This document shows, piece by piece, positions 1-15,809 of a DNA stretch of 15,809 nucleotides. The number at the start of each line of letters is the position of its first letter. The stretch's first letter is position 1. The notes beneath the pieces were generated by a model. The model worked only from the letters and a program-made list of their open reading frames with translations. It did no database searches and was not told where the DNA came from. Origin of the DNA: Paraspadella gotoi (taxonomy: Eukaryota > Animalia > Chaetognatha); assembly GCA_051294375.1 (NCBI GenBank), contig JBJCIZ010000458.1, positions 1-15,809 of the forward strand, given 5' to 3'. The position numbers were made by a program, and so were the translations under genes.

Positions 1-184
1 AAAACAATTGAGTGAAAAATGAGACCCCATTTTAAAAGCCAACTTCTCCACTTTTTTTTCAAAATAAATCTCAAATGATTGATCATATAAGATTTTTGGT
101 AATTTCTACTAAACTTTAAAATCAATGGTTACAAATGGCAGAGTTTTTTTACCAGCGGTTTAGAATTGTCACTATGTAGTTCGC

Positions 185-590
185 AGTGATAGTCGGTCTT
201 GGTAAGGCGGTCAACGGCGGCGGCGGCACGGAACAAGCCGATCGTCAAGCGTTGCCCATAAAGTCCTTGGCGGAGGGCGGTGATGCACTGCCCAGAGTAG
301 ATTCTTCTTTAAGAGCGGGAAAATGAGCTCTGCACCCCAGTCTCAGGAATAGGCAACGGCGGCGGCGCGGAAAATAGAACCAAGGTGGCGATGGTGGGGG
401 CGCCGAAAAAAGGTATGACGACGAGACGGAGGTGCGCTGAAAATGCAGGAAAGTGATCTCCCGGCGACTGAAAGTGGCGTTGGCAAGACGAATTCGGCCT
501 CGGAGAAGCGAAGAATACCCGTCGACTTGGAGACGAGATTCGACGTCGTCGGAGGCGGCGACCGACCGAGTGACACTTATCGCAGAGACT
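185..590. other. GC/CpG-rich island upstream of the leader; possibly degraded coding sequence or part of the LTR/U3
   Basis: Sharp composition contrast with both flanks. Short open frames on both strands are broken by shifts. The 14-mer CAACGGCGGCGGCG occurs at 212 and 354. Confidence 0.35.
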
Positions 591-760
591 TAAAAATGCT
601 GAATTTATTGGATAAACTATTTTTTATAATTTTTTTTTATTTCAAATTTTTAAAAAAAAATATATTCTTATATAAAAATTAATTATATAATATATTATGT
701 TACGCGAGCCCTCGGTTCCAGGCTGATAATATCTCGGGAGTTAATCTCGTTGCTATTTTG

Positions 761-785
761 TCAACAGTGGTGATAGAAAAGTTCT
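761..785 (+). other. Candidate 5' LTR end (...TCAACA, 766) and primer-binding-site-like TGG at 768
   Basis: AACA is followed after 1 nt by TGGTGATAG, the usual LTR/PBS geometry. TATAAAA lies at 671 and TGTTAC at 698. I cannot assign a tRNA, and there is no second LTR copy to confirm it. Confidence 0.3.
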
Positions 786-932
786 TTAGTCACTCCTGAG
801 ATACTAGCGCCTGGAAAGACTCTTGTGATTTTTTAGAAGAATTATTTAGCCATTTGTAAAGAACAGAAGCCGGAGCAGAAACGTTAGATATTAAGTGAAA
901 TAATATAGGGTTTAATTTTGTATCTTTACCTT

Positions 933-957
933 TTTTGATAATCTAGGATTATCAAAA
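933..957. repeat. Perfect 11-bp inverted repeat with 3-nt spacer in the 5' leader
   Basis: TTTTGATAATC-TAG-GATTATCAAAA read directly. Confidence 0.9.
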
Positions 958-1323
958 CGCTTGTGATCAATTGGATACTAATATAAGGGCTTTGCCTTGG
1001 TTTAATGATCCTGTTCATAATCATCTGCAGGGCACAGAGCGAAGCGCAGGGCTAATAGAAATTGAAGATATTTCCCTTAACATTTGATAATCATGCTCAA
1101 TAAACGCTAAATTCCGGGAAAATATCTTTTTTGATTAAATTACGTTTCCTTCAACGGAGGGTTGACGATCTTATCTATGAGAGTTGTAGATGCTCTTAGG
1201 GATAAGAAATAATAAAAATATACTTGTCCGGACCGGCGACCGGCCGTCTGAGTAGTTCGTCGACGTGGGGTTTGGAGGTATTACTTTCAATCACCTCAAA
1301 CAAACCTATTTGGGCTTCAGTTA

Positions 1324-4089
1324 ATGGAAAGTTTTTTCGATGAAGATAAGAATGTTAGTGAACGTGGTATTCGAGTTTTTGTTTATCAATTAAATAAAGA
1401 GTTGATCGAATTTATTAATAAGTATAAAAGAGCCCAAGAAGGTCCGTCTATTGAAACTGTTAATGTTGTTGAAGGTGCCCGTGATCACGTTCGTAGATTG
1501 CATACTGTTTTAACTAAGTTTATTAAAAGGCACCCTGAGTTTGAATCTAAAAAGGTTTTTAGTATTCTAAGTAAGACCGAGAGTCAATCTGTGCCGTATA
1601 TTTTAAATAAATATCCGCCGTTACCCGTTCCGTCGCGATCCGTCCGTTCGAATATGGACAATAATTTTGAACAGTCAGGGGGAAGGGATGAAGGGAATGA
1701 AACTGAAAGTGATCTTATTGTCGTAGAAGGTCCCGTTGTTTTGTCTTCCCAGTTAGAACCCAATCCTGTTGCACCATCGGCCCAGGCCGATGATATTTCG
1801 CCCGATCTCGATCCTCTTCCTCCTCCTCCTCGTATTGATTTAACACGAGAACGATCTTCTGCTGTCGAAGCAGCAGAAAACGCGCCAGTTCGGAGTCGGT
1901 CCGTGTTATCGACGCTTGCTAACGTTTCTGCGCATTTATCCGCTCTGGGAAGAAGTCGACATTCTTCGCCAAATGAGACGGTAGTGTCTGAAGTATCACC
2001 TGATGCTCGTCCGGAAAATCTATCTCAAAGGTTAGTAGACAAAGAACGAACTCGTAGAATTCGACGTTTAGAAATTGAACGAAAAAAGGCTCATTTAGAA
2101 AAGTTGATTAGAGAAATCGAAATTGCTGAAATTGAAGAAGACGCAGAAAACGAAATGACTTTGAATGAAAGGCAATGTAAAGGAAATGAAACTAATTTGA
2201 ATGCTTCGACCAGATCAAGGAATGGCGGCGCCGCGCGGAGAGCTTACAATGAATCCGTCTACGATCGAGTTTGCGGAGTAGGAACGACTTCGACGACAAA
2301 CGTGATGACCACGGTGAGTTGCGAAAAGGGTGGGTCTGGCAGTTTATTAAAGGGATCGTCACCGTTATCGAAGATCAGTCCAAAAGGTTTGACTGTTAAT
2401 ACGAATGATGCTAATTCGACGCCCGCACTGGTTCCATCAGTCGTCCCGATTTCGAGTCGTTCACGTTTAGAAACTGTGCCTAAGATCGTTGCTCGTAGTT
2501 CACCACAAACTGAACAGATTTTGTCTGGGGGGGGAGAGATTGAGATACCAAATGAATCCGTCCCGGCTCCAGTCATTCGACAACCGCCGAGAATGTCAAG
2601 GAGTGTTCCTAATGTGTTGAATCGTATCTCTGCACAAAATCAAAATGTTGTAGGACAGGGAAAGGTTGAAAACATGATTCCCGCGAATTTTTTGGGCAAT
2701 CCATTTAGTGCCTACCCAGCATTTAATCCATATTTTGCCTACCCACAGTGGTCGACTCCTTCACCAATGCATTTCCCAAACCAAGCACAATCGCCACAGA
2801 CTTCTGTTGCAAAGGTTAGCGTCTCACCCAATACACCGTCGGTGGCGCCAGCTGTTTCAAATCGTAATTCTCCGGTCCATAATGCAAATTCCACTCGCGA
2901 GAGGCCGTGTCCAAATTCTATTGTGGGAGAAACTTTGGGTGATTTTGGTGAGGATAGGGACAAGTTGACACAACTCTGCACTATCCAGATCCAGCAGCAA
3001 GCATTAAGCATGATGAGGCAACGTAGGCCCAAATTAAAATTTAATGGGCGTGACAAAAGGGTCGATTTTGAATCTCAACTGAACTTGTTTAATTCTCTGG
3101 TCAATATTGCTGGAGTGACTGACCAAATGATGATGAATGAATGTAAGGAATATTTTGATGGAGATGCCGCTATAATCGTGTCCCAACATGAAGCCTCTAG
3201 CGATTTCACTGATGCTCTAAAGAAAGTTAGGAAGGCTTTAAAGATAGAATTTGGTAGAAAAACGTATAATGCCCATCAAATGTTGGAAGAGTTGCTAAAG
3301 GGTCCTAAGATTTCTGATAAAGATTTTACTGGGGCTAGAACGTTTGTTCTTGAGATGGAAAAGTTTCATGTGAGGGCTAAGGAGACTGGTAGGGAGTTGA
3401 CTTTTTCAACTCAGGAGACATATAAGGAAATTATCTCTAAGAAGTTGCCTTTTCTGGCTGCTTGGGTGGCAAGAAGAATGGTTGATAAGGAATGGGAAAA
3501 GATGAAAAGTGATGATGATGATGGATTTTTTGACCTTGAAATGAAATTCGAAGATTTTATTGATTTTGTGAAAAAATCTGTGAAAATCAATGAGAGAAAG
3601 TCAGCCTTGTTGGGAAGTCGAGATGCTGTAACGACAAGTGCACCAATTTCTACCACACAATCCAAACCGACGAACACCTTTCAACGAAATCCAATTCGTT
3701 TTGCCGCAACTGCTGTTTCTTCTAACCCACGCACCCAACCCGTCTTGTCAACTCGTACATCTGGAGCTGCAAAAGTAACGAATATTGCTGCAGCATCTTC
3801 TTTTCCAAATCCAAATTCCAACCCAAACAACCATGCACCGCGAAATGCATCAACCTCGAAATGCCGATTTTGTGAGCAAAATCATCACACTGGCAATTGT
3901 AGTGATTATTTGGCGCTTGATCATGAAGCTAAGGTGACATGGTTAAGAGAAAAGGCTTTGTGTTTTTTGTGCTTTGGTCATGGACATGTTGCTAAGAATT
4001 GTCTTCGGATGTTGGGTTGTTCAAAATGTAGTGGGAGGCATCATGTATCACTTCATCAGGTGACTACCACCCAGGTTGAATCATCCTGA
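1324..4089 (+). CDS. gag: Gag, 921 aa: long S/P-rich N-terminal half, BEL capsid-like region (from KFNG..., about 3037), three C-terminal Cys/His knuckles
   Basis: Uninterrupted ORF. CRFCEQNHHTGNC (from 3862), CFLCFGHGHVAKNC (from 3961) and CSKCSGRHHVSLH (4018-4056) give the Cx2Cx3Hx4C / Cx2Cx4Hx4C / Cx2Cx3Hx4H triplet characteristic of BEL/Pao Gag. Confidence 0.93.
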   Translation: MESFFDEDKNVSERGIRVFVYQLNKELIEFINKYKRAQEGPSIETVNVVEGARDHVRRLHTVLTKFIKRHPEFESKKVFSILSKTESQSVPYILNKYPPLPVPSRSVRSNMDNNFEQSGGRDEGNETESDLIVVEGPVVLSSQLEPNPVAPSAQADDISPDLDPLPPPPRIDLTRERSSAVEAAENAPVRSRSVLSTLANVSAHLSALGRSRHSSPNETVVSEVSPDARPENLSQRLVDKERTRRIRRLEIERKKAHLEKLIREIEIAEIEEDAENEMTLNERQCKGNETNLNASTRSRNGGAARRAYNESVYDRVCGVGTTSTTNVMTTVSCEKGGSGSLLKGSSPLSKISPKGLTVNTNDANSTPALVPSVVPISSRSRLETVPKIVARSSPQTEQILSGGGEIEIPNESVPAPVIRQPPRMSRSVPNVLNRISAQNQNVVGQGKVENMIPANFLGNPFSAYPAFNPYFAYPQWSTPSPMHFPNQAQSPQTSVAKVSVSPNTPSVAPAVSNRNSPVHNANSTRERPCPNSIVGETLGDFGEDRDKLTQLCTIQIQQQALSMMRQRRPKLKFNGRDKRVDFESQLNLFNSLVNIAGVTDQMMMNECKEYFDGDAAIIVSQHEASSDFTDALKKVRKALKIEFGRKTYNAHQMLEELLKGPKISDKDFTGARTFVLEMEKFHVRAKETGRELTFSTQETYKEIISKKLPFLAAWVARRMVDKEWEKMKSDDDDGFFDLEMKFEDFIDFVKKSVKINERKSALLGSRDAVTTSAPISTTQSKPTNTFQRNPIRFAATAVSSNPRTQPVLSTRTSGAAKVTNIAAASSFPNPNSNPNNHAPRNASTSKCRFCEQNHHTGNCSDYLALDHEAKVTWLREKALCFLCFGHGHVAKNCLRMLGCSKCSGRHHVSLHQVTTTQVESS

Positions 4090-4178
4090 CTCGCGGCAGC
4101 GTATGCGACGACGGGGGCGTTTCGACCAATTGTGCCATTGGTTGTTTCCAACGGTCTGAGACGCGTCGTCACATACGC
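4087..4178 (+). promoter_or_regulatory. Putative stop-codon readthrough signal: UGA-C, 9-nt spacer, extended stem-loop
   Basis: TGA at 4087-4089 is followed by C. Pairings read by eye: 4099-4105 GCGTATG/CATACGC 4172-4178; 4107-4112 GACGAC/GTCGTC 4165-4170; 4117-4123 GCGTTTC/GAGACGC 4158-4164 (one G-U); 4124-4127 GACC/GGTC 4153-4156. Confidence 0.75.
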
Positions 4179-7100
4179 AATGATGGATAGCGGCGCTACA
4201 AGATCCGCTGTATCATCTAGAATAGTCTGTGAATTAGGTTTAGAGCCATATACATTATTTACAAATCTCTCTACATATAATACTGTTTCCCAAGCTTGGC
4301 GAGACTTCGTTGATTTAAAAATCTCAACTCTTGATGAATCTTTTTCTAAAGAAGTGAATAAAGTGCTTGTGGGTGATATATTGACCACAGAAAGTGATAA
4401 GCCATGTCGTAATGAGGATATTTCTGATTATGAGTATATGAATGGAGTTATTTTTGATGAGTTAGATCATGAGGATGTTGAGTTAATTCTTGATGCTCGT
4501 TTAGCCTCAACATGGGTAGGGGGCGAAACCAGAGTTGGTCCTGAAGGGTATCCCATAGCTCTTAAGACAAGATTTGGTTGGACGTTAGTGGGAGCCAGTG
4601 AAAATGAGACTAAGGATCAGATTAGTTGTTGTTCTAGTATCTCAGAATTTGATAAGCTTGAGTTTATGATTGCCTCTATGTTCCGTCATGATTTTATCCT
4701 CAAGGGAGACGAACGTTATCCCTCAGAAGTTCAACATGCTTCTTGTCAGGATTCGTATGCAATTGAGCAGTTGGAACAACAGACATATTTTAATGAGGAG
4801 ACCGGCCATTACGTGGCTCCGTCACCTTGGAAGAAGGGCAGGAGTAAAACTGCTGAGTTGTTTGAACCACTGTATAAAGACGTGGCAGAAAATGCAAAAA
4901 GCAGAGCTAAGAAAACAGCCAATAAGATGAGAAAGGATCCAGTTCTTAAGGAAGGTGTTTTTAAGACTATGAAAGAGACTGTTGAGATGGGTCATGCTAG
5001 AAAGGTAGTTGAAGATCATCCACCTAAAGGAATCCCTGAATATTTTGCTCCTGTCCATGTAGTGACGCGACCGGACAAACCCGGAAAATTTCGGATTTGT
5101 CAGGATGCGGCTACTAAGGTGAAAGGCTCAAGTCTTAATGATTACTTAATCCCTGGTCCAGATAATTTGACGCCTTTGATAGGAATTTTATTAAAATTTA
5201 GAAGGAAAAGAGTGACGTTGGCAGGGGATATAAAATTATTTTTTCATCAAATAGAGTTACATCCTAATGACGTGGCTGCCTTTAGGTATTATTGGTATAG
5301 TGATGAAACCATGAAGGTTTTAGAAAAACATGAGCCCTTGGTTCACGTATTTGGTGGGGCAGGAAGCCCAGGGGTTGCTAATTTTATCCTTCAATACCAT
5401 GCAAAAGCAAATAAAGATGTGTTCTCACCTGATGTTTTAATGGCTTTATATTTAAAATTTTATGTTGATGATTTTATTGATTCGCTTGATGGAGTTAAGC
5501 AGGCGCGAAAAATGAGAATAGATATTATTGAAGCCTTAAAAAAGGGAGGTTTTGATATTGGGAAGTGGAAAAGTTCTGACGAACGTGCTTTACTTGATTT
5601 TTCAGTTGACGGAGAAGACGATCCTTGCCACGACTCTATCGCCACCCTGATCGACTCCGCTTCTCCAGATAACGCCGAGGATCTCACGGATGATCTTGAG
5701 AGAGTAATCGACAATGCCCTCCCTGATAATCCCACCCTTGATGAGCAAGATAACAAGGTATTGGGAGTTGGATATAATTTTCGTCGTGATATGTTTTTTG
5801 TAAGAATTTCTAAAAAATATGAAAAGGAGGCAAAGACTCGTCGTGATATCTTAAGTTTAGTCTCTTCCATGTTTGACCCCATGGGTCTTATTTCGCCTTT
5901 TATTTTAAAGGGGCGATGCTTTTTTCAAAAGGCGACTGATTTAAAACTAGAATGGGATGAGATGTTGCCTGAGGATTTGGAAAAGGATTTTAATTTTTGG
6001 CGTGTAAGCATTTTTAAACTTAAAAAATTGTTAATACCAAGATGGACCGCCGTGTTAGGTTTAAATGATTTTATTGCAAAACTGATAGTTTTTTGTGATG
6101 CTTCATCTGAGGGTTACGGCATGGCCGCGTATATTAAAAAAGAAAGTAAATGTGGAAAATTAAATCACGTTTGTCTATTATTTGCTAAGGCTCATGTTGT
6201 CCCTCTTAAGATGCAAAGAATGATTATCCCTGACCAGTTAGATCACGGAGATTCAATGCCCCGCCTTGAGCTGAATGCGGCAAGACTTGGTGCTCAGATG
6301 CGTGATATGATAGAGAGAGAATCTGGGGAAGTGTTTGAAACAGTTTTCATGATGACTGATTCTTTGACAGTATTGAGATGGATTCATGATTGGTGTAAAC
6401 GTTTCAAAACCTTTGAAAACTTTAGATTAAAAACAATTCGTTTACTTTCCAGGCCTACTGAATGGCGACATGTTCCGGGTGAGGAGAATCCGGCGGATCT
6501 TGCGAGCAGAGGCATCGACGCCGACGACGAGAAGAGTTGGTCTCGTTTTCATAAAGGACCCAGCTGGCTGAAGCAAGCTGAATCCGAGTGGCCTATGACT
6601 TCCGATCCAAACAAAGTCAAAAAGAAAAAAGGCAAAGTAGATCTTAAGGCCATTGACGAAGACAGCGCCTTCTCTCCGTCTGAGTTGGTTCTCTTAGGCG
6701 CTACTCGTGAGCATCCCGTAATGCCGGACTCTAAATTATCTACAGGTTGGGCTTTAAAAGTTACAAATAAACTGGAAAATTGGATAATGAAAGTTCGCCG
6801 AATTGCTTACTTTATAAATGCGGTTTTACGTTTTGTAAAATTTTTGGGAAAAAAGAAAAAAGCTGATGATAGTTTGTTTAAAAAAATTCGTTTGACGGCG
6901 CCCGAATTTTTAAATGCTGAAAAAATATTAATTCGGTCGGTCCAAAGATCACATTTTGAAAAAGAGATATTTTCTTTAATTAAACTAGGAGTTTCTTCCG
7001 CCGACGCTCACAAAGAGCTCCGCACACAAAGGTCTAAACTTGTTTCTTTGAGTCCCTTTGTCGATGAGATGGGTATTTTAAGGACTGGTGGTCGTTTAGT

Positions 7101-8283
7101 TAATTCTAGCTGTCTTAATTTTGATTCTAAATTTCCTATCATCCTTCCTAAAGACGACGAAGTGGTTAAATCTTTAATACGTTATGAACATGAAAAATTG
7201 TATCATGCTGGCCCAGCGGCGACTTACCATTCCGTACGTCAACGATTTACTATTTTAGGCGGACGAAGTGCGATTGATATTGTTGTCAGACGGTGTGTTA
7301 AATGTCAAAAATTATTTAAAAATAATTTAAGCCAGAAGATGGCTAATCTCCCGCCGGAGAGAGTAAATCTTTCGGTTCCATTTAAAAATTCTGGAATAGA
7401 TTGTTTTGGACCTTTTCAAATTCGTCTTGCTGGGAGGGGTCTGAACAAAAAATTTGTCTTGTTAATATGTTGTCTCGCTACACGTGCAGTAGTTTTTGAA
7501 CCATTAAAGGACATGTCGGCTCCGTCAGTCCTTAACGCATTAATTCGAGTAAAAAATTCTTTTCCAGGCATGGAATCGCTTTTCTCTGACAACGGCACTA
7601 ATTTCAAAGGTGCTGCAAACGATTTAAAGTCCCAACTTCAGGCGATTTGTAATGACGAAAAATTAAGCGAGGGAATCGCGGTGAGAGGAATCTCTTGGAA
7701 TTTCGGACCTCCGTATACGCCTCACGCAGGTGGGATTTGGGAACGCCTTGTACGTTCGGCAAAGAAACATTTAAAAGCAGTCATTCCAGATAATCTTGAT
7801 TATGATACCTTTAATACTATTTTAAGTGAAGTTGCCGGGATTCTTAACAGACGGCCTATTACGTTTGAGGCATCAGACCCTTTGGAACCTATTGTTTTAT
7901 CTCCACTTAATTTACTTTATCCTTATTTATATGCTCCTAGTTCTCTTACACTTTTACCACATGCTCCATCTGAAGGAGACATAATGAAGTCTACTTGGCG
8001 AAAAGTTCGTGAAGTAGCTGACGAGTTTTGGTTCCGATGGCGTGATGAATATTTGCCTTCCCTTCAGGCGCGAACGAAGTGGTTCCAATCGTCACCGGAT
8101 CTTCCAATCGGCGAAGTCGTTCTCATTGTTGACCCCACCGCGCCGAGAGACAGATGGCGCACAGGAATCGTTGTGGAAACGTCTGGAGAGGGTCCCCACT
8201 CGCGAGAGGCAATTGTTAAATTGCCTGACGGTCGAAAAATTCGTCGTCATTACCGTTCGCTTGTTTCGCTAGAACTGAATTAA
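4090..8283 (+). CDS. pol: Pol polyprotein (aspartic protease, reverse transcriptase, RNase H, integrase); probably translated as a Gag-Pol readthrough fusion 1324-8283 (2319 aa)
   Basis: The frame is open from immediately after the gag TGA. Motifs: protease DSG at 4186; RT LAGDIKLFF and YVDD at 5461; RNase H CDAS (D at 6097), PRLEL, TDS, NPAD; integrase H(7189)-H(7204)-C(7294)xxC and D(7399)-D(7588)-E(7741). The ORF-track GTG start at 4132 is unlikely to be real. Confidence 0.96.
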   Translation, partial: LAAAYATTGAFRPIVPLVVSNGLRRVVTYAMMDSGATRSAVSSRIVCELGLEPYTLFTNLSTYNTVSQAWRDFVDLKISTLDESFSKEVNKVLVGDILTTESDKPCRNEDISDYEYMNGVIFDELDHEDVELILDARLASTWVGGETRVGPEGYPIALKTRFGWTLVGASENETKDQISCCSSISEFDKLEFMIASMFRHDFILKGDERYPSEVQHASCQDSYAIEQLEQQTYFNEETGHYVAPSPWKKGRSKTAELFEPLYKDVAENAKSRAKKTANKMRKDPVLKEGVFKTMKETVEMGHARKVVEDHPPKGIPEYFAPVHVVTRPDKPGKFRICQDAATKVKGSSLNDYLIPGPDNLTPLIGILLKFRRKRVTLAGDIKLFFHQIELHPNDVAAFRYYWYSDETMKVLEKHEPLVHVFGGAGSPGVANFILQYHAKANKDVFSPDVLMALYLKFYVDDFIDSLDGVKQARKMRIDIIEALKKGGFDIGKWKSSDERALLDFSVDGEDDPCHDSIATLIDSASPDNAEDLTDDLERVIDNALPDNPTLDEQDNKVLGVGYNFRRDMFFVRISKKYEKEAKTRRDILSLVSSMFDPMGLISPFILKGRCFFQKATDLKLEWDEMLPEDLEKDFNFWRVSIFKLKKLLIPRWTAVLGLNDFIAKLIVFCDASSEGYGMAAYIKKESKCGKLNHVCLLFAKAHVVPLKMQRMIIPDQLDHGDSMPRLELNAARLGAQMRDMIERESGEVFETVFMMTDSLTVLRWIHDWCKRFKTFENFRLKTIRLLSRPTEWRHVPGEENPADLASRGIDADDEKSWSRFHKGPSWLKQAESEWPMTSDPNKVKKKKGKVDLKAIDEDSAFSPSELVLLGATREHPVMPDSKLSTGWALKVTNKLENWIMKVRRIAYFINAVLRFVKFLGKKKKADDSLFKKIRLTAPEFLNAEKILIRSVQRSHFEKEIFSLIKLGVSSADAHKELRTQRSKLVSLSPFVDEMGILRTGGRLVNSSCLNFDSKFPIILPKDDEVVKSLIRYEHEKLYHAGPAATYHSVRQRFTILGGRSAIDIVVRRCVKCQKLFKNNLSQKMANLPPERVNLSVPFKNSGIDCFGPFQIRLAGRGLNKKFVLLICCLATRAVVFEPLKDMSAPSVLNALIRVKNSFPGMESLFSDNGTNFKGAANDLKSQLQAICNDEKLSEGIAVRGISWNFGPPYTPHAGGIWERLVRSAKKHLKAVIPDNLDYDTFNTILSEVAGILNRRPITFEASDPLEPIVLSPLNLLYPYLYAPSSLTLLPHAPSEGDIMKSTWRKVREVADEFWFRWRDEYLPSLQARTKWFQSSPDLPIGEVVLIVDPTAPRDRWRTGIVVETSGEGPHSREAIVKLPDGRKIRRHYRSLVSLELN

Positions 8284-8709
8284 TTGAAAGTTTGGAAATG
8301 ACAACCAAACTTAGTTTGATAGAAACTTTCTATATTTGAAAGTTATTAAGAAACCAAATGGTTATTTAAATTGATTTTTTCTCTGAGTTATTCTGAGTTA
8401 AAAAATTAGTTTGCTATTTATTTTTCATTGAATTTACCTGTCCTTACTAAAATCGCCGTTCCGCTTTCATTTATATAGACAGATTTTAATTGAAACGATA
8501 ATAACTTCTCATTGAGAATACTTTGTTTGATCAACAAAGTTAGTTGAATTTGAAAGCCTATGTTGAAGCTAGTTGGATTGAATTTTTTTTATATGAATTT
8601 TTTTTTTAGTTTCAAATTTTTATTTTTTACTGCCGACGCACATTAATATTTATTTGTGGCACTTCGTCCTTGGTTATTCGTCGTTACGTTCTGCCGATCG
8701 ATCATTAAA

Positions 8710-8955
8710 ATGAGCCTTTCTCGTGAATTCGTTGAGAAGTTCTTTGCTCCGTCGGAAAGGGAAAAAAGAGTTTTCGTCTTGGGACTCGCGACGCGTAAGA
8801 GAACACGGTCAACTCCAGAGCTCAATAGGATCATGGAAGATATCAATGAAACGGAAAACGTGATGGTGGGCGTACCTTTACATGACCTTTGGATGCTCGA
8901 GCGAAAATTGAAGATTCAGTCCCAAGAGTTGGAAATAACAAGACTAAAATCGTAA
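8710..8955 (+). CDS. Small accessory ORF A, 81 aa, unknown function (MSLSREFVEKFF...)
   Basis: More GC-rich island between AT-rich spacers. Start context aaaATG, and it is the first ATG after the T-tract/AG at 8608-8609. AATAAA follows at 9027 and 9068. Confidence 0.65.
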   Translation: MSLSREFVEKFFAPSEREKRVFVLGLATRKRTRSTPELNRIMEDINETENVMVGVPLHDLWMLERKLKIQSQELEITRLKS

Positions 8956-9173
8956 TGGTTTTCGTCGTCGTCGTGGATGTTTGTTTAGTGTTTATGTTTC
9001 ATTTGATTCAAGTTTACAAATAACCTAATAAACAAGAATGAAAAGTAAAAAATCTATAATCAGCAGAAATAAAATTGTGTTTGTTTTTTTTTTCGAAAAT
9101 AATAATATATATTTGTTGTTGAACTTAATCGTTTCAGTTTGATTGCTAACTATTTTTAACTATTTTTTAAATC

Positions 9174-9256
9174 CGTGATCCGCTGCTCCATCTCACCGTC
9201 CTTTCTCTCATTACGTGATCCGCTGCTCCATCTCACCGTTCTTTCTCTCATTACGT
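9174..9256. repeat. Tandem duplication of a 40-bp unit (2 copies, 39/40 identical)
   Basis: CGTGATCCGCTGCTCCATCTCACCGT(C/T)CTTTCTCTCATTA at 9174-9213 and 9214-9253, followed by CGT. Confidence 0.97.
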
Positions 9257-9332
9257 TATACGCTGCACCGTTTGCAGTCCACTGCGCTGTTTCGCGATTC
9301 CCCGTTTCGGTACGCGATCAGTTTCATTGAAG

Positions 9333-9605
9333 ATGGCGGAACCCAAGAACAGCGGGCTGCATCGTTATCTGGTTTCTTTGGCGGTTCCAGATCACGCCAA
9401 ACAAAGGTTTCATGAGTTATACTCGCGGGTCATTTTGGCTAAGGAAAAAGAACTCTTTGAGATGATGGAGAGGATGGGAATTTCAAGAACAAGCTCCGGT
9501 CAGGTGCCTGCTGAATTTGTGCCGCTGTTTAAAGACTGGGAGCGTAAAGCCGAAGACGAACTCAATCACGAGATCGCGGAGTTCCTTCGGGATTTGGAGA
9601 AATGA
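9333..9605 (+). CDS. Small accessory ORF B, 90 aa, charged helical protein of unknown function (MAEPKNSG...)
   Basis: Start context aagATGg, first ATG after TTTCAG at 9137. Protein-like amphipathic composition, bounded by AT-rich spacers. Confidence 0.7.
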   Translation: MAEPKNSGLHRYLVSLAVPDHAKQRFHELYSRVILAKEKELFEMMERMGISRTSSGQVPAEFVPLFKDWERKAEDELNHEIAEFLRDLEK

Positions 9606-9731
9606 AGACGACGGAACATTGCATCTATTTGAACTGTTTTTACTGAGTACTATTTTTTAGGTTTAGTTAAAAATCAGTTGACCTAACGTGCCGTGGAATG
9701 ATTTATTTTTTAGTTTTTCTGGTCATCAGTC

Positions 9732-9929
9732 ATGTCGTCCAGCAATTTTCAAGTTGATCGAGATGGTGCTGAGGACGATAATGCCTCCGCAGCATTTGCA
9801 GTTTATATTGAACCTGGTGAAACATTGTCTTCTCAAGAAATCTTACAGTTGTTTCAATCTATTAGAAGGGGGATTTTGATCGCGCGAGAGGCAGAAAGGC
9901 AGCGAATTATTGATCAAAATGAAGAATAG
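9732..9929 (+). CDS. Small accessory ORF C, 65 aa, acidic, unknown function
   Basis: First ATG after TTTTTTAG (AG 9712-9713). The ORF fills the island and AT-rich sequence resumes right after the stop. Confidence 0.6.
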   Translation: MSSSNFQVDRDGAEDDNASAAFAVYIEPGETLSSQEILQLFQSIRRGILIAREAERQRIIDQNEE

Positions 9930-10218
9930 CTCTTTATATAAAGATTTATTGGTGCCTTTTATTATTTAGTGGTTCTATTCATCCACGGATAATATTTGAG
10001 TAATTTGAAAAGAGACTACTTATTTATCTGGCCTACAGATTAAATTATTAGGTCAATTATCTCGAACTTTAATTTTGAAATATTTGATTTAAATTTCATG
10101 TTCTTAATGAGGAGTTAATTATTTGTATTGTTAAACATGTAATATTTATTTCTTAAGCCTCCGTTGCAATCTACTTTGTTATTCGTAGTCTTAGTTAAGT
10201 AATAGTAACGTGATTGCC

Positions 10219-10470
10219 ATGGCTCAACGATTTGAGAGATTTTTTGAGTCCCTGGGAGAGGACGAGGCTGTGAGGCAGCTATTTGAAGAACGACGACTTG
10301 AAGCAAATGCTCAAGTCATTTCCGGCTTGGTTTATTCGCGAGAGGTTGAGTTCCAAGAAAATTACCTGTTACCTGAGATAGGCCCTCATCACGTATCTAC
10401 AGATTCGGCTGACGAAGAATCGTTGTCAAGAGAGCCTACCAGCCCAAGGAGAATTCGACTTCACCAATAA
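10219..10470 (+). CDS. Small accessory ORF D, 83 aa, unknown function (MAQRFERFF...)
   Basis: Strong Kozak context gccATGg, first ATG after TTTATTTCTTAAG (AG 10156-10157). Flanks are AT-rich. Confidence 0.7.
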   Translation: MAQRFERFFESLGEDEAVRQLFEERRLEANAQVISGLVYSREVEFQENYLLPEIGPHHVSTDSADEESLSREPTSPRRIRLHQ

Positions 10471-10542
10471 TTCATTCAAAATTTTGCATTGAATTTAATT
10501 TAGTATTTAAATTATTATTTTTTTTTTTTTTTTTTTTACAGT

Positions 10543-10629
10543 ATGAGTTCTTTAACTCCTAGAAAGCTGAATTTGTACTACCCGATTTATCACTTATTTC
10601 AGTTTGTTTTGTTTTCGCGAAGTTCATAA
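10543..10629 (+). CDS. Possible micro-ORF E, 28 aa (MSSLTPRKLNLYYPIYHLFQFVLFSRSS), or remnant of a longer gene
   Basis: ATG lies 1 nt after a strong acceptor-like site (T20-ACAG, AG 10540-10541). Too short for further support. Confidence 0.3.
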   Translation: MSSLTPRKLNLYYPIYHLFQFVLFSRSS

Positions 10630-11017
10630 CCAGTCGCATAATGCTACGTTTACCACTCTGATATTAATTTACATTAATTAGGCATAATCGTCGTCGTTTT
10701 TTCATTGGTCTCCTGCTCGGTTTTCTTGCGCTTGCCTGATCCTCTTCCTCTTCTCTCAGCTCCTCCTCATCCTCTTTTTGATCCTCCTCCTCTCTTTTTG
10801 CTCCTCTTCCTTTTTAAAAAACCAAGTTTGGGCACAAGCTTGTCAAGCTTTCATACGTTCACTTTATTCGAATCGTTTTCGTTTCGGTTAATTGAAATAA
10901 TAAGTTGAATTTAATATATTTTTTTTATTCCTTTCCTCGACGTTATTTACATAATTGATATTTTATTAAGCAAAGATATTCCAAGTTTTTCCTGACGTAC
11001 CTCATCGGGCTTCAAAA

Positions 11018-11626
11018 ATGAATGACTCTGAACTTCTTGGCTGGGCTTTAAATCGAGCGAACGCAGCCGCTCTAAAAGTTCGTAACACCAAGGCCTTTCT
11101 GCAAGAAGCCACGAAGGCGATCGATGCGATTGACGAGAGCCTTACTGCTACTAGGAAAATACTCGACCTAGGCATCAAAAGAATTGAGACTCGTCAGGAG
11201 GTAAGCATTAAATTAGTTGAAATTATGGGTTATCTTGTTCATTTTTTATTTTTAACTAGTTTAAGGTTATTCATTAAGTTATTACTTTAGGTCATTCGTT
11301 CTGCTAATCAGTCGGGAAATTATCCTCCGTTAATTACGTTCGACGATGATGATACCCCTAAAGTTAAACGTGGTTCCGTCAAAATCATTCCGTTGATCAC
11401 CAAAACACGAAAACCCACAAGCAACTTGGTCATGCCGCGATCTCCTTCCGTGCCCAAGTTAGAGGAACCGTTTAATCCGATTCCGTCGCTTATGGGACAA
11501 AAGCCAAAAACTGGGAATCAACTCTCAGAGAGTAACCGTAACGAGTACGTCCGCTTGCCAAAGAAGGCAGTGAGGCAATATAACCATGCTCCAAGCTCTG
11601 CTGGCCAAATTAAGCCAGACGCTTAA
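11018..11626 (+). CDS. Spliced accessory gene F, 172 aa: join(11018..11200, 11291..11626); N-terminal helical domain plus P/K/S-rich tail
   Basis: Donor GAG|GTAAGC at 11201, AT-rich 90-nt intron, acceptor TTACTTTAG|G at 11290. Phase-0 splicing joins the two track ORFs (11018.. and 11393..11626) into one stop-free frame. Confidence 0.8.
11201..11290 (+). other. Spliceosomal GT-AG intron, 90 nt
   Basis: Near-consensus donor and acceptor, strongly T-rich body, and removal restores a continuous ORF. Confidence 0.8.
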
Positions 11627-11802
11627 TTCAGGACAAACATTAGACTTCGTTGTGTGTTTCGTTTAGTAATTAGATTGTACCATTGTCACTTTGATACATG
11701 ATATTATTTTTTGTTAGTGTTGTTTGCGATGTTTGCGTCTCACTACGTTTTTTTTTTTTTTTTTTCTTTTCTCAGTTTATATGTTAAAGTTGATATAAAC
11801 TA

Positions 11803-12144
11803 ATGACGGTCGTTGCCTCATTACGATTAGCACAGTGGAAAGTTGATCTCGCTACGGACATTGCGGTCAAAGCGGGAATCCAAATGAAGATCGCGCGGAC
11901 GGATGATGAGAAGATAATAGCAAAGATTGGGTTTGCAGAAGCTGTGAGAATGCTGCAGGAAGCTAGCACCATGGCAGCACAGTCCTTTAATGACGTTGCG
12001 CTTGAGGATGTTGACGAGGATGTCCAGCGTTTAGAGACAATACTGCGGGAAAGGATCGAAACGGGTCATCAAGCACTTGACGATGCGTTAGGCTGGTACG
12101 AGGAAATACCCGCACTGGAACCGCTCGACGATTACGAGTCGTAA
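11803..12144 (+). CDS. Small accessory ORF G, 113 aa, Ala-rich helical protein with acidic C-terminus; paralogue of ORF I
   Basis: Follows T18-CTTTTCTCAG (AG 11774-11775). Ungapped alignment to ORF I gives 15 identities in the first 55 aa. Confidence 0.8.
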   Translation: MTVVASLRLAQWKVDLATDIAVKAGIQMKIARTDDEKIIAKIGFAEAVRMLQEASTMAAQSFNDVALEDVDEDVQRLETILRERIETGHQALDDALGWYEEIPALEPLDDYES

Positions 12145-12365
12145 AACTTAATAGTTAACTTGTTTAATGCCCAGTTCGTCGCATATCTTGTTAAACATCA
12201 GTATGTAACATACCTTGCATTAATTTGTTTGCTTTGGTGGCCTATGTTTTCCATAATACTGAAAGTTGATAGCTATTAAATTTTTTTTTTATTAAGATTG
12301 ACGAAACGATTTGAAATATTTGAGAATTTAAATTATTTCGTTGTATTATCATTTGGTAAATAAAC

Positions 12366-12602
12366 ATGACTCATGAATATTTGGATCGCGCTATCAATAT
12401 TATTTTAAAGACTCAAGCGTCCCTGAGAACTAGCACTGACGAATGGACTCGTGCAGTTATTTTAGAAAAAGTTAACACTGCTCTTAAACTTTTAGAGACA
12501 GCACGAGATACAGCTAGTCATTGTCCCGAATGTCAAAAGCGCCCTCTTGTGCAGAATGTAACGTCTGATCCAGTCCTTGCCGAAAAGTTTTCTAATTTTT
12601 AA
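12366..12602 (+). CDS. Small accessory ORF H, 78 aa, helical protein with HCPEC motif; probable paralogue of ORF I
   Basis: Start context aacATG, first ATG after T10-ATTAAG (AG 12295-12296). LDRAINII matches ORF I VERAINSI. Confidence 0.72.
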   Translation: MTHEYLDRAINIILKTQASLRTSTDEWTRAVILEKVNTALKLLETARDTASHCPECQKRPLVQNVTSDPVLAEKFSNF

Positions 12603-12706
12603 ATTGTTTGTGAAAATTATTTGAATTTCTGTGAATGCTAGTGTACTGGAGATTTAAACAATTGGTTAAAAATTTAATATTTATTTTAAGGTTTTATAAA
12701 TTTATA

Positions 12707-13033
12707 ATGAATACCGCGACGGTCGTATCACTCGCTATTGAAAAGGTTGAGAGAGCAATCAATTCAATAATTGAAGCCAGGGGAAAGTTGCTTTCTGCCG
12801 TAACTCCTGAGGAGCAAGTCGCCACGACGACGGCAATTGACCGGGCGGAGAGATTGACTCACGAGGCATCAAAGATAATCATTTCCACGATGGCGACGAT
12901 CGATCCACACGACGAAAGACTGTTCGAGTTCTGGGCTTCTGGGAATCGTGTTGTCAAGAAGTTGAATCAGGAGAAAGCGTTATTAGACGAGATGGTCGAC
13001 TTAAACAAAGATCGCGACGATATGATTAATTAA
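12707..13033 (+). CDS. Small accessory ORF I, 108 aa, helical protein (MNTATVVSLAIEKVERAIN...)
   Basis: First ATG after TTTATTTTAAG (AG 12689-12690). This start puts it in exact register with ORFs F and G. The 24 upstream codons in the track are AT-rich spacer. Confidence 0.8.
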   Translation: MNTATVVSLAIEKVERAINSIIEARGKLLSAVTPEEQVATTTAIDRAERLTHEASKIIISTMATIDPHDERLFEFWASGNRVVKKLNQEKALLDEMVDLNKDRDDMIN

Positions 13034-13263
13034 AACTTTCTACTAATGTTTTATTTAAGAAAACTCTTTAATATTTTCTTGTTGATTGTTTAAATCTATT
13101 TTTATGAATTTACAATGTTAAATTAAAAATTGTTTAGGTCATTTTTTCATTAATAAGGCCTGAGGGGCAAACTGATAATAAAACAATTCTTGGCCGAAAC
13201 GCGCGGCGATTACTTTAATAATATTGCAGTGAACTTTTCTAAAGATTAACTCTGAGTGGCACC

Positions 13264-14688
13264 ATGAGCGTAATTACTCCCAACCGGTGACATACTTTTT
13301 GGAGGGCTCACAGAAGACGAGCGATTAATGTTTGACCCGGATGAGCTCATTTGGCCGGACAACAAATCTGTCACGGAGTCCGAGATCGATCCCAGTCCAC
13401 GAAGAGGTGAATCAAGAATCCTCGCCTGCAAGCAAGGTACTTTGTATTGAAATTAAATTAACATATTTTTGGGAGAATTAACTCGGCATTGATCTTGATA
13501 CGTTTTTTTTAGGCCTTTGCCGATCAATTTTTGAATGTTAATGGCCGAAGACGATGCGCCCACCGGAAGGGCGGCTGAAGATTTACAACTGAACCAATTG
13601 TCTATGGTACGGAGATGAACGCCTCTTTGCCCCATCTTTCGTCTGTTCACCAGAGAAACAACAGATGTACCGTAACATTCGACGTGGCGCGTGGGAACGG
13701 ATTGCGATGCGCCGTGTGGTGGACACACCAGCAGTTCTGCGGAGTTTATTGGTCTTATAAACTCTGGAGAAAGGCCTATGTACTTTATAAATCGCTCGTC
13801 GCGTTTTTCCTCGGGAACCGTCAATGCCCCTTACGATGCATCCGGTCGGGTCTTCAAATTTCGTTGTGGACAGAGTGACAGACGCAGAGGAAAGTCTCCA
13901 AATTTTGTTCACGTGGCCAAGACTTCTCATTCGAATTCGTCAACAGAGGTTCAATATGTGGGCCAGTCTCCAGAAAGGCCTGCACCTTCGAGAAAGTCTG
14001 AACAATCTTCTGCTTGCCAAACCTTTTGGATGATGTCTCTTGGAAAGAATTGGAGAAAAAGATTGGAAAGTTAAAGAAGAAGCGGTGAGACACGAAGCCA
14101 TTAATGGAGAACTAAAAGAAAGAAAACGCTAAGATTGAAAAGAATTACAATGAAGAAATACAACGTCGACTGGAGGCTGAAATGAAAATAGACGTCATAA
14201 GAAAGGATGCTGACCAAAGAATTGACAAATTACAAAGACTTTGGAGCAAAGCCTTCAGTAAAGAAAAGACCCGGGCAGACGAGCAGAGTTTTTACTTGAA
14301 AAGGAGAGGAAACAAGTCATCTCTCAAAGTGAATTAGAAAAGAATAAAATTATTCAAAGATCTCGGTTCACCATTGCATCGTTCAGTCAATTTTGAATCA
14401 CGAGAATCCGCTTTTGGTTGGTCTCAGTTTGGGGAACAAGCCGATGTCCTGCCTCGTGACGGAATTTCCAGATTCGCGACCTCTTCGTTCAGCTCGCAGT
14501 TGGTTCCCTTTCATCCGCCGCCAGGCCAGGAACACTTGATTCATACGCCAAAGTTTGGGCCGCCTCAGCCGCGCCGCTTGAGGGAGTCTACTCCTTCTCC
14601 GGGGGATACACCTCCTCCTCCACCTTCTCCTCTTTTTTCTCCCAAAAGGCATCTGTCTAAATTTCGTATCGTAAAGCGTAAAAAGTGA
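13264..14688 (+). pseudogene. Larger frameshift-disrupted gene (J): probable 76-nt intron 13437-13512, coiled-coil segment about 14030-14350, proline-rich C-terminus ending in a basic NLS-like tail
   Basis: accATG at 13264, AAG|GTACTT donor and T8-AG acceptor. Protein-like segments alternate between + frames: KELEKKIGKL / KEEAVRHEAINGELK / KENAKIEKNYNEEIQRRLEAEMK (open 14116-14337) / RAEFLLEKERK / ...PPPPPSPLFSPKRHLSKFRIVKRKK*. The exact structure cannot be resolved. Confidence 0.5.
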
Positions 14689-14998
14689 ATTATTACACAT
14701 TTACTTTTTGAAAAGTAATATTAATCTTATAGCGTGTTTTTAAACACAAACAATCAAATTAAAGTTAGAAAATCCTTAGTTAATAATTTTTTTGAGATTC
14801 GCGAGTAAACCAGTTGATAATAAGATTTAGTTTGATTGTTATCGATTTGAAGCAATGATATTGTTGCGAAAATTTGAATTTTTTTTTATTTTTATTTGGT
14901 TCAGCGCGCGACGCTGATAGGTCGTAGAAACGAGATTTTACACAATTTTTTATGGGAATTGAATTACTCTTTGATGGATTCGTTGGAGCCTTGTCGAT

Positions 14999-15038
14999 GC
15001 TCTCTCTTTCGCTCGCTCTCTTTCTCTCTTTCTCTCTC
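14999..15038. repeat. Degenerate (TC)n microsatellite / GAGA-like tract
   Basis: GCTCTCTCTTTCGCTCGCTCTCTTTCTCTCTTTCTCTCTC read directly. Confidence 0.85.
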
Positions 15039-15809
15039 AAAACTGAATTTTATTTGCGGAACGGGTTTTATTAGTAAATACGGCAGACAGATTGACTATA
15101 ATACATAAATTATTTCAAATCTTGATAAGAAACATAGTTTCTTAAATATTTATTTTGTGATACTTGCGTATGAATTCACGAAACCTCGGATATGAGGTTA
15201 AATATTATTTGAATAGTGAAAGTTAAAACTTTGTACTATCTGAAACAAAACTGAAACCTTCATAATAAGGTTATATTGAGCGAAATTATAAAAATTTCGG
15301 AATTGAAAGTTGTTATAACTTAGTTTCGTTTGAACTGCAGTCCTATATTGAACCACAAAGATAGGTGGTAAAATTATACGTGTGACGACACGTTTTCTGA
15401 ATCTCGGTGACGACTGGGATAATAATTTATCTGCCGATTATTACATTTATTATTAAAGATTGTGTCCCGGGCAACACGGTCAGTCATTTAAAATTGTTTG
15501 ACACTGGTTAGTGTTTAATAAAGATAAGAGATTAAGAAAATTAAAAATTAAATTATTGATTTCTCTATTATCTTTACGGAAAGCGAGTAAATTAGTAGTT
15601 CTTGTTGGATTGCTTTAATTTGGCGAGTTAAGTTGGTAGTTCTTAATTTTTTTAAGACATACGCAGTTTGATAATGTAAATAATGATTGAATTGGATGCC
15701 TTTACAATATTAGTAAAGCTTACGATTAATCAATTTATACGTAATGTTGATATTAGTATTTGATTACTCCAAGAATTTAATCTGTTGTTTGGATTATTAT
15801 TCACTAGTC

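Follow-up and report, generated by a model that had tools for sequence, protein, structure and literature searches.

A BEL/Pao retrotransposon of the chaetognath Paraspadella gotoi followed by an array of small genes that may be its own accessory cassette

In the stretch of 15,809 nucleotides of Paraspadella gotoi DNA analysed here (the window), the pol gene of a BEL/Pao retrotransposon is followed by nine co-oriented ORF units, all on the + strand, and it seems to us probable, with some reserve, that the array belongs to the element as an accessory cassette of its own. The explanation that best accommodates the data, held with like reserve, is that of a BEL/Pao element whose gag and pol are split by a UGA and which carries about nine genes for soluble, host-binding accessory proteins, likely made via spliced subgenomic RNAs. 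Somewhat less firmly, although still on the favourable side, the whole may be read as an env-less “complex” BEL/Pao element of >15 kb, combining readthrough of the alphavirus type, about nine intron-bearing or splice-accessed genes, the duplication of a three-helix module and membership of a large undescribed clade from plankton metagenomes; its accessory genes would equal or exceed in number those of even the most complex retroviruses. If so, gene-rich “complex” genomes would have arisen outside Retroviridae as well, the element, with the array inside it, would have far more genes than the described BEL/Pao members, and the small orphan proteins would be candidate anti-silencing or RNA-export factors of invertebrates.

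Table 1. Features of the window, with their positions, strand and supporting observations
Feature	Positions	Strand	Observations
Repetitive region, maybe 5' LTR/leader or unrelated repeat	1..1155	.	Numerous variant contigs; frequent indels and substitutions, joints and loose ends
gag, 921 aa, ends in TGA	1324..4089	+	Three Cys-His boxes near C-terminus; 161 relatives at E<=1e-10
Predicted stop-codon readthrough signal	4087..4181	+	UGA-CUC followed by a long stem-loop that starts near +13
Intact pol (protease, RT, RNase H, integrase, DUF5641), same frame as gag	4090..8283	+	Pfam
ORF1, 81 aa, soluble	8710..8955	+	T-tract/AG at 8609 upstream; contig bridge to pol
Tandem repeat, 40 bp, 2.3 copies, 94%	9174..9266	.	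In ORF2 leader
ORF2, 90 aa, soluble	9333..9605	+	ORF list, property scan
ORF3, 65 aa, acidic	9732..9929	+	ORF list, property scan
ORF4, 83 aa, acidic	10219..10470	+	ORF list, property scan
28-aa ORF, probably no gene	10543..10629	+	Directly after T-run/AG
ORF6, two exons, 172 aa spliced	11018..11626	+	Predicted 90-nt GT..AG intron 11201-11290
ORF7, 113 aa, predicted three-helix bundle	11803..12144	+	ORF9 paralogue; strong T-tract/AG at 11775
ORF8, 78 aa, helical-looking, one CxxC	12366..12602	+	Weak ORF9 likeness, not significant
ORF9, 108 aa, predicted three-helix bundle	12707..13033	+	ORF7 paralogue
Long last gene	13264..14688	+	76-nt GT..AG intron 13437-13512; frameshifted in window

Coding signals and proteins of the array

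The + strand ORFs that an earlier note on this DNA had listed after pol are all present (Table 1), and their number is far above expectation: between 8284 and 13100 there are 9 ATG-ORFs of at least 60 aa on the + strand, as against 1.6–1.8 in 500 block shuffles that preserve the GC islands (maximum 7, p=0.002), and 2 on the − strand. Seven pooled ORFs show a codon-position bias (p=1e-19), 9 of the 10 starts have the purine at −3 that the note had ascribed to most of them, and in the last 100 nt upstream of nine starts ATGs are depleted (5 vs 15.5), an effect partly built in by the choice of start; the ORFs of the array thus look like real, protein-like genes, and are likely to be so. The sizes given at the outset stand, with the reservation that the 172 aa of ORF6 hold only if the predicted intron is removed, the unspliced frame giving 90 aa with a hydrophobic tail; in ORF9 an alternative in-frame ATG at 12635 would give 132 aa. 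GC-rich islands between AT-rich spacers, also claimed, are found for the ORFs (GC 0.39–0.50, against 0.30 for the pooled spacers) with the exception of the 28-aa ORF, which is doubtful because of its GC of 0.32 and its lack of codon bias, and the supposedly regular spacing is a loose one, with spacers of 104–547 nt.

As the note had stated, nothing in the array is env-like, nor is there a fusogen-like ORF, as judged by Pfam, hydropathy and Cys content, the last gene having been covered in five pieces only. The ORFs have 0–2 Cys each, their best 19-residue hydropathy is <=1.15, save for the 1.74 of the intron-read-through tail of ORF6, no membrane helix occurs in ORF1–4 and ORF7–9, and none of the ORFs has the MG start of myristoylation. 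The unspliced ORF6 could possibly end in a C-terminal membrane anchor, although T-rich introns yield such tails by composition.

Likewise, the searches gave no homologue for the array proteins, which the note had not recognised either. Queries of Pfam with 17 proteins and of PHROGs with 14 yielded no small-ORF match better than E 0.019, exact sequence look-up matched 0 of 10 proteins, and word-seeded searches with ORF9 and with a profile of ORF7 and ORF9 gave 0 matches at E<=10. Of the array proteins, the large protein collections were queried with ORF7 and ORF9 alone; Atlas offered no usable match for ORF7 or ORF9, the PDB sequences and tblastn against 79 loci no homologue of the array proteins, and the viral and prokaryote contig scans no relative.

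Within the array, ORF7 and ORF9 are shown by their sequences to be old paralogues, for which the same three-helix bundle is predicted. Aligned Met-to-Met without gaps, they agree in 14 of 54 residues (p=5e-5, with 28 pairs compared). All other offsets score at most 1, and the likeness is visible at the protein level only; single-sequence AlphaFold models reach a pLDDT of 77.5 (ORF7) and 81.2 (ORF9), with the same helix boundaries. Foldseek returned nothing for these models at E<=1e-3, and the best VIA comparison (Z 11.0, rmsd 3.1, 97 aligned) lies under the level of about 13 that bundles need, there being in this sense no specific fold match to MIT, BAG or syntaxin-Habc; an MIT/ESCRT mimicry of ORF7–9, proposed by eye from a motif, found no support in the fold searches. 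ORF6 and ORF8 were considered as further paralogues and set aside, their likeness not being significant.

Linkage, introns and a diverged copy

A short-read contig spanning 8065–10038 bridges pol and ORF1–3, and another (11809–15652) runs from ORF7 beyond the last gene; the bridge counts as one data set, the X7 and X8 contigs being identical, depths included. Run X7 covers gag poorly. The T-runs near 10500 and 11760 are spanned by none of the contigs listed, and it is only in the window that the sequence continues across them. In X1, X3 and X5 the array and gag-pol have similar contig depths, which are no measure of copy number.

As regards the ends of the element, the features examined were those of the Belpaoviridae: (i) LTRs of 0.2–1.2 kb with a target-site duplication; (ii) a primer site for tRNA-Arg or tRNA-Gly; (iii) and a polypurine tract preceding the 3' LTR. 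The long gag-pol contigs start at 1156, and the region that precedes this point has no 3' copy within the window. No direct repeat resembling an LTR pair was found in the 15,809 nt, in keeping with the note's remark that no 3' LTR was visible; the element may extend beyond the window on both sides. By eye, and with no host tRNA for comparison, no TGG site in 600–1330 was recognised as a primer-binding site, and the purine runs of at least 10 downstream of pol all fall inside ORF regions. Since neither LTRs nor a target-site duplication were seen, that the array is part of the element is something that we infer.

The last gene had been described as a larger broken gene; its fragments point to a coiled coil and to an end rich in Pro and Arg. 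The indel rows listed (12 of 75) all lie in 13.1–14.4 kb, and for 9 of these 12 indels contigs of all four runs compared have the indel at full depth or close to it; as the window's small indels have no counterpart in the short-read contigs, its frameshifts are probably errors of this assembly, and in the organism the gene is probably whole. There is, moreover, a diverged second DNA copy of the 3' half in which 13434 is joined to 13511, with GT..AG ends; the intron-less join occurs in four of seven run ids (X1, X3, X5, X6), with 0 letters between the two sides by the arithmetic of the X6 record, and the X7 and X8 contigs retain both introns. Such an exact loss is expected from the reverse transcription of spliced RNA, and it is likely that part of the array has passed through this route; alternatively, the intron may have been gained in the window's copy. 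The diverged copy is listed only from about 11470 onward, in contigs that show presence only; among the contigs listed there is no diverged one over most of gag-pol or over ORF1–4, and in X7 and X8 none of this copy. From its pieces neither a single locus nor an attachment to a pol is evident. The comparison of synonymous changes across copies that the note had proposed agrees with coding in a single frame-consistent part of the last gene, where all 5 differences are at third codon positions and 4 are synonymous (p=0.013), and falls short overall, where 13 of 31 coding differences are synonymous and about 28% would be expected (p=0.085), with 5/12 in ORF7, 3/11 in ORF6 exon 2 and 0/2 in ORF9, all among 40 of the 136 rows. 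The spacers have more T than A on the + strand in 10 of 10 cases, and T-tract/AG sites number 17 on + as against 5 on −, with a null of 9.4; the excess is significant (p=0.007) at a single threshold of the three used, the other two giving p=0.09 and 0.32. AG sites of this kind lie near 8609, 9137, 9729, 10194, 11775, 12296 and 12690.

If the array belongs to the element, a single long RNA would start in a 5' LTR not seen here, cross the array and end in a 3' LTR past 15809, and in its unspliced form would be the genome. Gag-Pol would be produced by readthrough of UGA-CUC, aided by the stem-loop, and access to each small gene would be gained by splicing at the T-rich/AG site of its spacer, from a donor situated in cis in the 5' leader or, if the host has it, by spliced-leader trans-splicing; the diverged copy would have come from the reverse transcription of a partly spliced RNA. 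The small helical proteins could be adaptors or decoys against host silencing, or regulators of RNA export, rather than entry factors, a role which is the most speculative part of the proposal and which would be doubtful even if the cassette is real.

The in-frame UGA between gag and pol

gag and pol are two ORFs, parted by an in-frame TGA at 4087–4089 that the earlier note had missed. By tblastn, gag matches the gag of BEL loci, and among 150 listed relatives 97 of the 100 with a third Cys-His box end <=70 aa past that box. In pol, the Pfam matches are PF05380 (1e-30), PF18701 (1.6e-17) and PF17921 (1.4e-8), together with a match to PF00078 that, at 3e-4, is below the Pfam cut-off; the RT has the YVDD motif, and PF05380 is present in all 120 pol relatives listed. 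The type of pol, the PR-RT-RH-IN order and the nucleocapsid Cys-His boxes of gag are those of Belpaoviridae.

TGA-CTN is found at four of four gag/pol junctions of the clade to which the element belongs, with CUC, CUG and CUA all represented, and the features of type II readthrough, for which CUN or CGG comes after the UGA, are thus present in the form of an in-frame UGA-CUN and, at three of the four junctions, of an extended 3' stem-loop (fold z −2.5, −3.9 and −2.6; +0.3 in L004); an Rfam scan gave 0 matches. This clade of 46 members (support 0.99) is separate and known from metagenomes. Clade relatives are encoded on long contigs, among them ones of 18.8, 19.0, 17.2 and 12.4 kb. Among the members a long 3' flank is available for L007 only; there, pol is followed by one long non-env ORF, which is preceded by a pyrimidine tract and AG and has no likeness to the window's ORFs. 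The lack of an array in L007 tells against the “lineage” of array carriers that had been envisaged. A stop between gag and pol was reportedly described by Gao et al. in 2003 for the Bombyx element Kamikaze. The type II readthrough of alphaviruses has CUN after UGA and an extended stem-loop that starts at about +12 to +16 (PMC13517186), and Candida Tca2 is arranged as gag-UGA-pol (PMC2194720); the window also has UGA-CUN and an extended stem-loop, but its UGA sits in a BEL/Pao clade. In the literature covered, to which subscription papers, Repbase and supplements did not belong, no BEL/Pao small-ORF array or readthrough clade was found. Array aside, the conserved UGA-CUN and stem-loop mark a well-supported BEL/Pao clade with a gag-pol expression unlike the family profile, a strategy that is directly testable by reporter.

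Alternative origins of the array and known systems

An alternative explanation, unlikely in our judgement although to be taken seriously, is that the small genes are real and constitute a separate unit (a mobile element, the relic of an endogenous DNA virus or a host orphan operon) beside or around a BEL/Pao element that is truncated or has lost its LTRs. This would agree with the LTRs not being seen, with a second copy of the 3' half whose link to pol is not seen either, with introns and acceptor-like sites, which host genes and operons commonly have, and with L007 lacking the array. However, intact pol is separated from ORF1 by 426 nt, on the same strand and with no LTR-like repeat, Pfam and PHROGs reveal in the array neither a transposase or helicase gene nor one for a polymerase or capsid, the precise removal of the intron suggests reverse transcription and, more weakly, the CpG and TpA ratios of the array ORFs are near those of gag-pol.

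That only part of the array (ORF1–4, for example, or a last gene equivalent to the 3' ORF of L007) is the element's, the rest having been inserted into it or wrongly joined to it at a T-run by the assembly, is improbable: the uncrossed T-runs, the many indel errors in the 3' part of the window and the point from which the diverged copy is listed speak for it, but both halves are alike in ORF size, spacer make-up and strand, and the flanking contigs stop right at the T-runs in all runs, as with a simple homopolymer break. That the ORFs are open by chance only, within the GC-rich islands of an extended 3' untranslated region, is very improbable, since, against the want of homologues and the weak overall synonymous excess, there stand the ORF excess over GC-preserving shuffles, the codon periodicity, the paralogy of ORF7 and ORF9 at the protein level, their confident single-sequence folds and the exactly lost intron. 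The note's reading of an accessory cassette is supported in part, by the non-random ORFs, the link from pol to ORF3 and the likely passage through spliced RNA; the lineage, the broken gene and the suggested functions do not gain such support.

Belpaoviridae are characterized by one to three genes in 4.2–10 kb, with gag and pol as one ORF or two overlapping ones (PMC8742986). The window's element resembles them in its Gag with three Cys-His boxes and its PR-RT-RH-IN Pol with PF05380 and DUF5641, and differs from them in the in-frame UGA that parts gag from pol and, if the array lies inside, in having about 11 genes over a coding span of >13 kb and no env; it departs from their typical layout, which is descriptive and no taxonomic criterion, and its Pol homology places it as a variant of the family in spite of this. 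In the env-bearing BEL/Pao elements (roo, Tas, Cer7, Atlas), a single large ORF comes after pol and encodes a Cys-rich glycoprotein that has a signal peptide and a membrane anchor, and Cer7 of C. elegans has an extra ORF; in contrast, no such glycoprotein ORF was found in the window, with the last gene checked in pieces. Complex retroviruses express their accessory genes from multiply spliced RNAs. Zebrafish DrFV-1 has three extra ORFs of unknown role (PMC2774666). As in the window, a number of small orphan genes come after pol in these viruses, but they are of another family, have env or fewer extra genes, and no sequence or fold link to them was found.

The env-less MDG1-group of Drosophila has sORF1 and sORF2 of 70–110 aa, these being Metaviridae in which the small ORFs lie upstream of gag and are unspliced, and sORF2 is a transmembrane FAST-like fusogen (10.1101/2025.03.14.642691). 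Small accessory ORFs in an LTR retrotransposon without env are common to both, whereas the window has about nine, 3' of pol, with introns and no MG start; in respect of the marks of such fusogens (N-terminal MG myristoylation, one membrane helix, a polybasic patch), a membrane helix occurs in the window only for the unspliced ORF6. Finally, bdelloid LTR elements carry after pol a non-env ORF3 that is usually expressed from spliced messages (PMC5408684), and C. elegans Cer1 has a spliced, SL1-trans-spliced RNA, its genome RNA being unspliced (PMC3315495). These systems, as described there, have one extra ORF, often an enzyme, and no BEL/Pao array; what they share with the window is the presence of non-env genes after pol and, as proposed for the window, a retrotransposon that would make use of the cis- and trans-splicing of its host and keep its genome RNA unspliced.

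Coding capacity of the array

The small ORFs which the earlier note had listed 3′ of the BEL/Pao pol (81, 90, 65, 83, 28, 172, 113, 78 and 108 aa) all lie on the + strand within 8710–13033, the longer unit said to follow them is likewise there, at 13264–14688, and we hold it as close to certain that the array consists of real protein-coding genes. In 8284–13100 there are nine + strand ATG-ORFs of at least 60 aa, taking ORF6 as two separate parts, whereas 500 rounds of shuffling in blocks of 30, 60 or 120 nt give 1.6–1.8 (p = 0.002), and the − strand has two; in seven ORFs pooled, base use is unequal among codon positions (p = 1e-19). The description of GC-rich islands between AT-rich spacers also stands (pooled GC 0.46 vs 0.30, the spacers being 104–547 nt long), as does that of a purine at −3 of the ATG, present at 9 of 10 starts; the 28-aa ORF, without these coding marks of the others, is probably not a gene.

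Features of the window (genes on the + strand), with the corresponding gag-pol junctions of three metagenome BEL loci
Feature	Position	Description
gag	1324–4089	terminates at TGA, same frame as pol
UGA-CUN + stem-loop between gag and pol	4087–4181; L001 1043, L002 321, L004 1988	
pol	4090–8283	uninterrupted, BEL/Pao type
linker in pol	5580–5760	acidic, GC-richer, between RT and RNase H; length varies among relatives
ORF1	8710–8955	81 aa
40-bp tandem repeat	9174–9266	in ORF2 leader; possible RNA or promoter signal
ORF2	9333–9605	90 aa
ORF3	9732–9929	65 aa
ORF4	10219–10470	83 aa
CT-rich 20–21-bp repeat	10735–10815	5′ of ORF6; could be a promoter or RNA signal
ORF6	11018–11626	172 aa only with 90-nt GT..AG intron 11201–11290 taken out
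ORF7	11803–12144	113 aa
ORF8	12366–12602	78 aa
ORF9	12707–13033	108 aa
last gene	13264–14688	analysed piecewise

Nine short-read run ids of one organism, one of which may be the source of the window, contain 68–88% of the words of 5500–15000, and the contigs of seven were aligned to it; since those of X7 and X8 are identical, they represent two or three studies at most. One X7/X8 contig (8065–10038) joins the end of pol to ORF1–3, and another contig (11809–15652) extends from ORF7 to past the last gene. A T-run near 8600 is the break point of contigs in the other runs, those near 10500 and 11760 are crossed by none among the contigs listed, and ORF1–6 differ from the contigs by 0–2 substitutions. 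The last gene, previously thought broken, most likely owes its breaks to assembly error, because the many small indels that separate window and contigs in 13.1–14.4 kb are absent from the contigs themselves: of 75 rows 12 are shown, and for 9 of these the contig version has full or almost full depth in each of the four runs compared. The cluster, seen against all short-read contigs, marks 13100–14400 as a poorly polished stretch.

The small proteins

The ORF proteins found no match in Pfam, PHROGs, PDB-sequence, Atlas or large-collection searches, the last with ORF7 and ORF9 only as queries. Their non-env character, proposed from the sequence, is borne out in that no ORF has a membrane helix, save possibly in the hydrophobic C-terminal tail that unspliced ORF6 would have; none starts with MG. 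ORF7 and ORF9 align without gaps from Met1 (14/54 identical, p = 5e-5, 28 pairs), with scores of at most 1 at shifted offsets from −14 to +14; an ordinary local-alignment test gives p = 0.012 among 78 pairs, and their DNA shows no likeness. For both, AlphaFold2 (single sequence) predicts a three-helix bundle (pLDDT 77.5 and 81.2) with common helix boundaries (3–30/31, 34–64, from 71/72), and the fold search suggested earlier returned generic bundles only (best Z 11.0, rmsd 3.1, 97 aligned). On this protein likeness and shared predicted fold, growth of the array was at least partly by old duplication, after which ORF7 and ORF9 kept their frame and predicted fold. Small soluble helical proteins of this predicted kind would be suited to binding host proteins; that they act as adaptors is a guess, and a role in counter-silencing or RNA export is a guess that we regard as rather doubtful.

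A diverged copy and the proposed expression of the array

Diverged contigs, roughly 90–94% alike, cover parts of about 11470–14500 (X1, X3, X5, X6, X9) and carry a deletion, 12099 to 12769, which takes out the whole of ORF8 together with portions of ORF7 and ORF9; others cover about 1215–1408, one with an early stop in gag. In X1, X3, X5 and X6 there is a joint, 13434–13511, with GT..AG ends; the gap that X9 has there is a little wider. The 65 letters past the joint in X6 record 14 divide into 39 aligned and 26 loose, with 0 between, a count that leaves none, so that a 76-nt intron is precisely missing from the diverged copy. The alternative is that the intron was gained in the window's copy instead; precise intron loss in DNA being the usual mark of spliced RNA that has been reverse-transcribed, the diverged copy is likely to have passed through both steps and, if its pieces are one locus, the copied RNA would have carried several ORFs and their spacers. 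One stretch of the last gene that keeps a consistent frame has 5/5 copy differences at third positions, four being synonymous (p = 0.013); synonymous differences number 5/12 in ORF7, 3/11 in ORF6 exon 2, 0/2 in ORF9 and 13/31 overall, vs about 28% expected (p = 0.085; 40 of 136 difference rows). They fit a decaying second copy, with a weak indication of selection.

In eukaryotic RNA, internal ORFs require their own 5′ ends. Every spacer is T-rich on the + strand, few ATGs lie immediately upstream of the ORF starts, and T-tract/AG sites number 17 on the + strand vs 5 on the − (null 9.4; at thresholds 11, 12 and 13, p = 0.09, 0.007 and 0.32), with one in gag-pol. AATAAA occurs in some spacers only, which weakly favours a shared 3′ end over nine separate poly(A) sites. 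The reading we prefer is a retrovirus-like scheme, in which RNA left unspliced would be both the genome and the message for gag/gag-pol; splicing would yield further RNAs with each small ORF placed at the front, through cis-splicing from a 5′ leader or spliced-leader trans-splicing.

The element, its clade and known systems

Among the matches listed (120 of 143 pol relatives at E ≤ 1e-30), the best 46, nearly all from ENA metagenome assemblies, have 34–45% identity; most start at the protease or close to it, and for this reason likewise have no fused Gag. In a midpoint-rooted FastTree of the RT/RNase H stretch, restricted to 70 BEL/Pao rows (the window, 45 of these 46 and 24 hand-picked others, with two rows removed for length and 49 matches left unchosen), the window and the 45 form a single clade (support 0.99, long stem), separate from every named fish, insect, crustacean and fluke match. 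One Pol fragment of this clade (P0148) has been filed as a bacterial protein from a SAR324 assembly, eukaryotic contamination of that assembly being the probable cause; its place there would point to a marine planktonic animal as host. Five of 79 metagenome loci are nearest to the clade, and the gag-pol junction is present in three (TGA-CTG, TGA-CTC, TGA-CTA; window TGA-CTC), a long stem-loop following the TGA in 3/4 junctions (z −2.5, −3.9, −2.6; L004 +0.3). A third Cys-His box is found in 100 of the 150 gag relatives listed, 97 of which terminate at most 70 residues beyond it, although some ends may be contig ends or frameshifts. UGA-CUN, conserved in frame between gag and pol and with a stem-loop downstream, is the mark of a distinct BEL/Pao clade that numbers 45 metagenomic Pol clusters or more, and in which Gag-Pol would be made by readthrough of UGA.

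That the array lies inside this readthrough-type element is the reading to which we incline. Against it, neither an LTR nor a primer site nor a target-site duplication is seen in the window; 1–1155 is repetitive, with no partner copy within the window. This stretch, GC-rich at 100–600, has many variant contigs and could be an LTR or an unrelated element. Among 34 loci hand-picked from the 79, 13 extend at least 2 kb after pol, none with more than four + strand ORFs of at least 60 aa there. The sole clade member among them, L007, of the same family as L004, carries a single Pro/Arg/Ser-rich non-env ORF after pol (2510–4807; 612 aa from the counted Met). This ORF is coiled-coil-like towards the C-terminus, is preceded by a pyrimidine tract and AG, and has no sequence relation to the array; it speaks for 3′ genes other than env in the clade, not for an array. 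Contigs carrying clade relatives reach 19 kb. Outside the clade, L054, L021, L077 and L051 have + strand ORFs of 984, 784, 763 and 512 aa after pol, which could be env-like or belong to neighbouring elements.

Subscription papers, Repbase and supplements aside, the literature searched yielded neither a BEL/Pao element that carries an array of this kind nor a UGA-readthrough clade; the present clade may correspond to one among the five environmental BEL clades of PMC5029228. BEL/Pao elements measure 4.2–10 kb, with one to three genes (PMC8742986; also PMC3118150), and the small accessory ORFs known from LTR retrotransposons number one to three in each. For the splicing scheme, Cer1 is a precedent (PMC3315495), and the UGA-CUN with stem-loop matches the type II readthrough context that PMC13517186 tabulates for alphaviruses.
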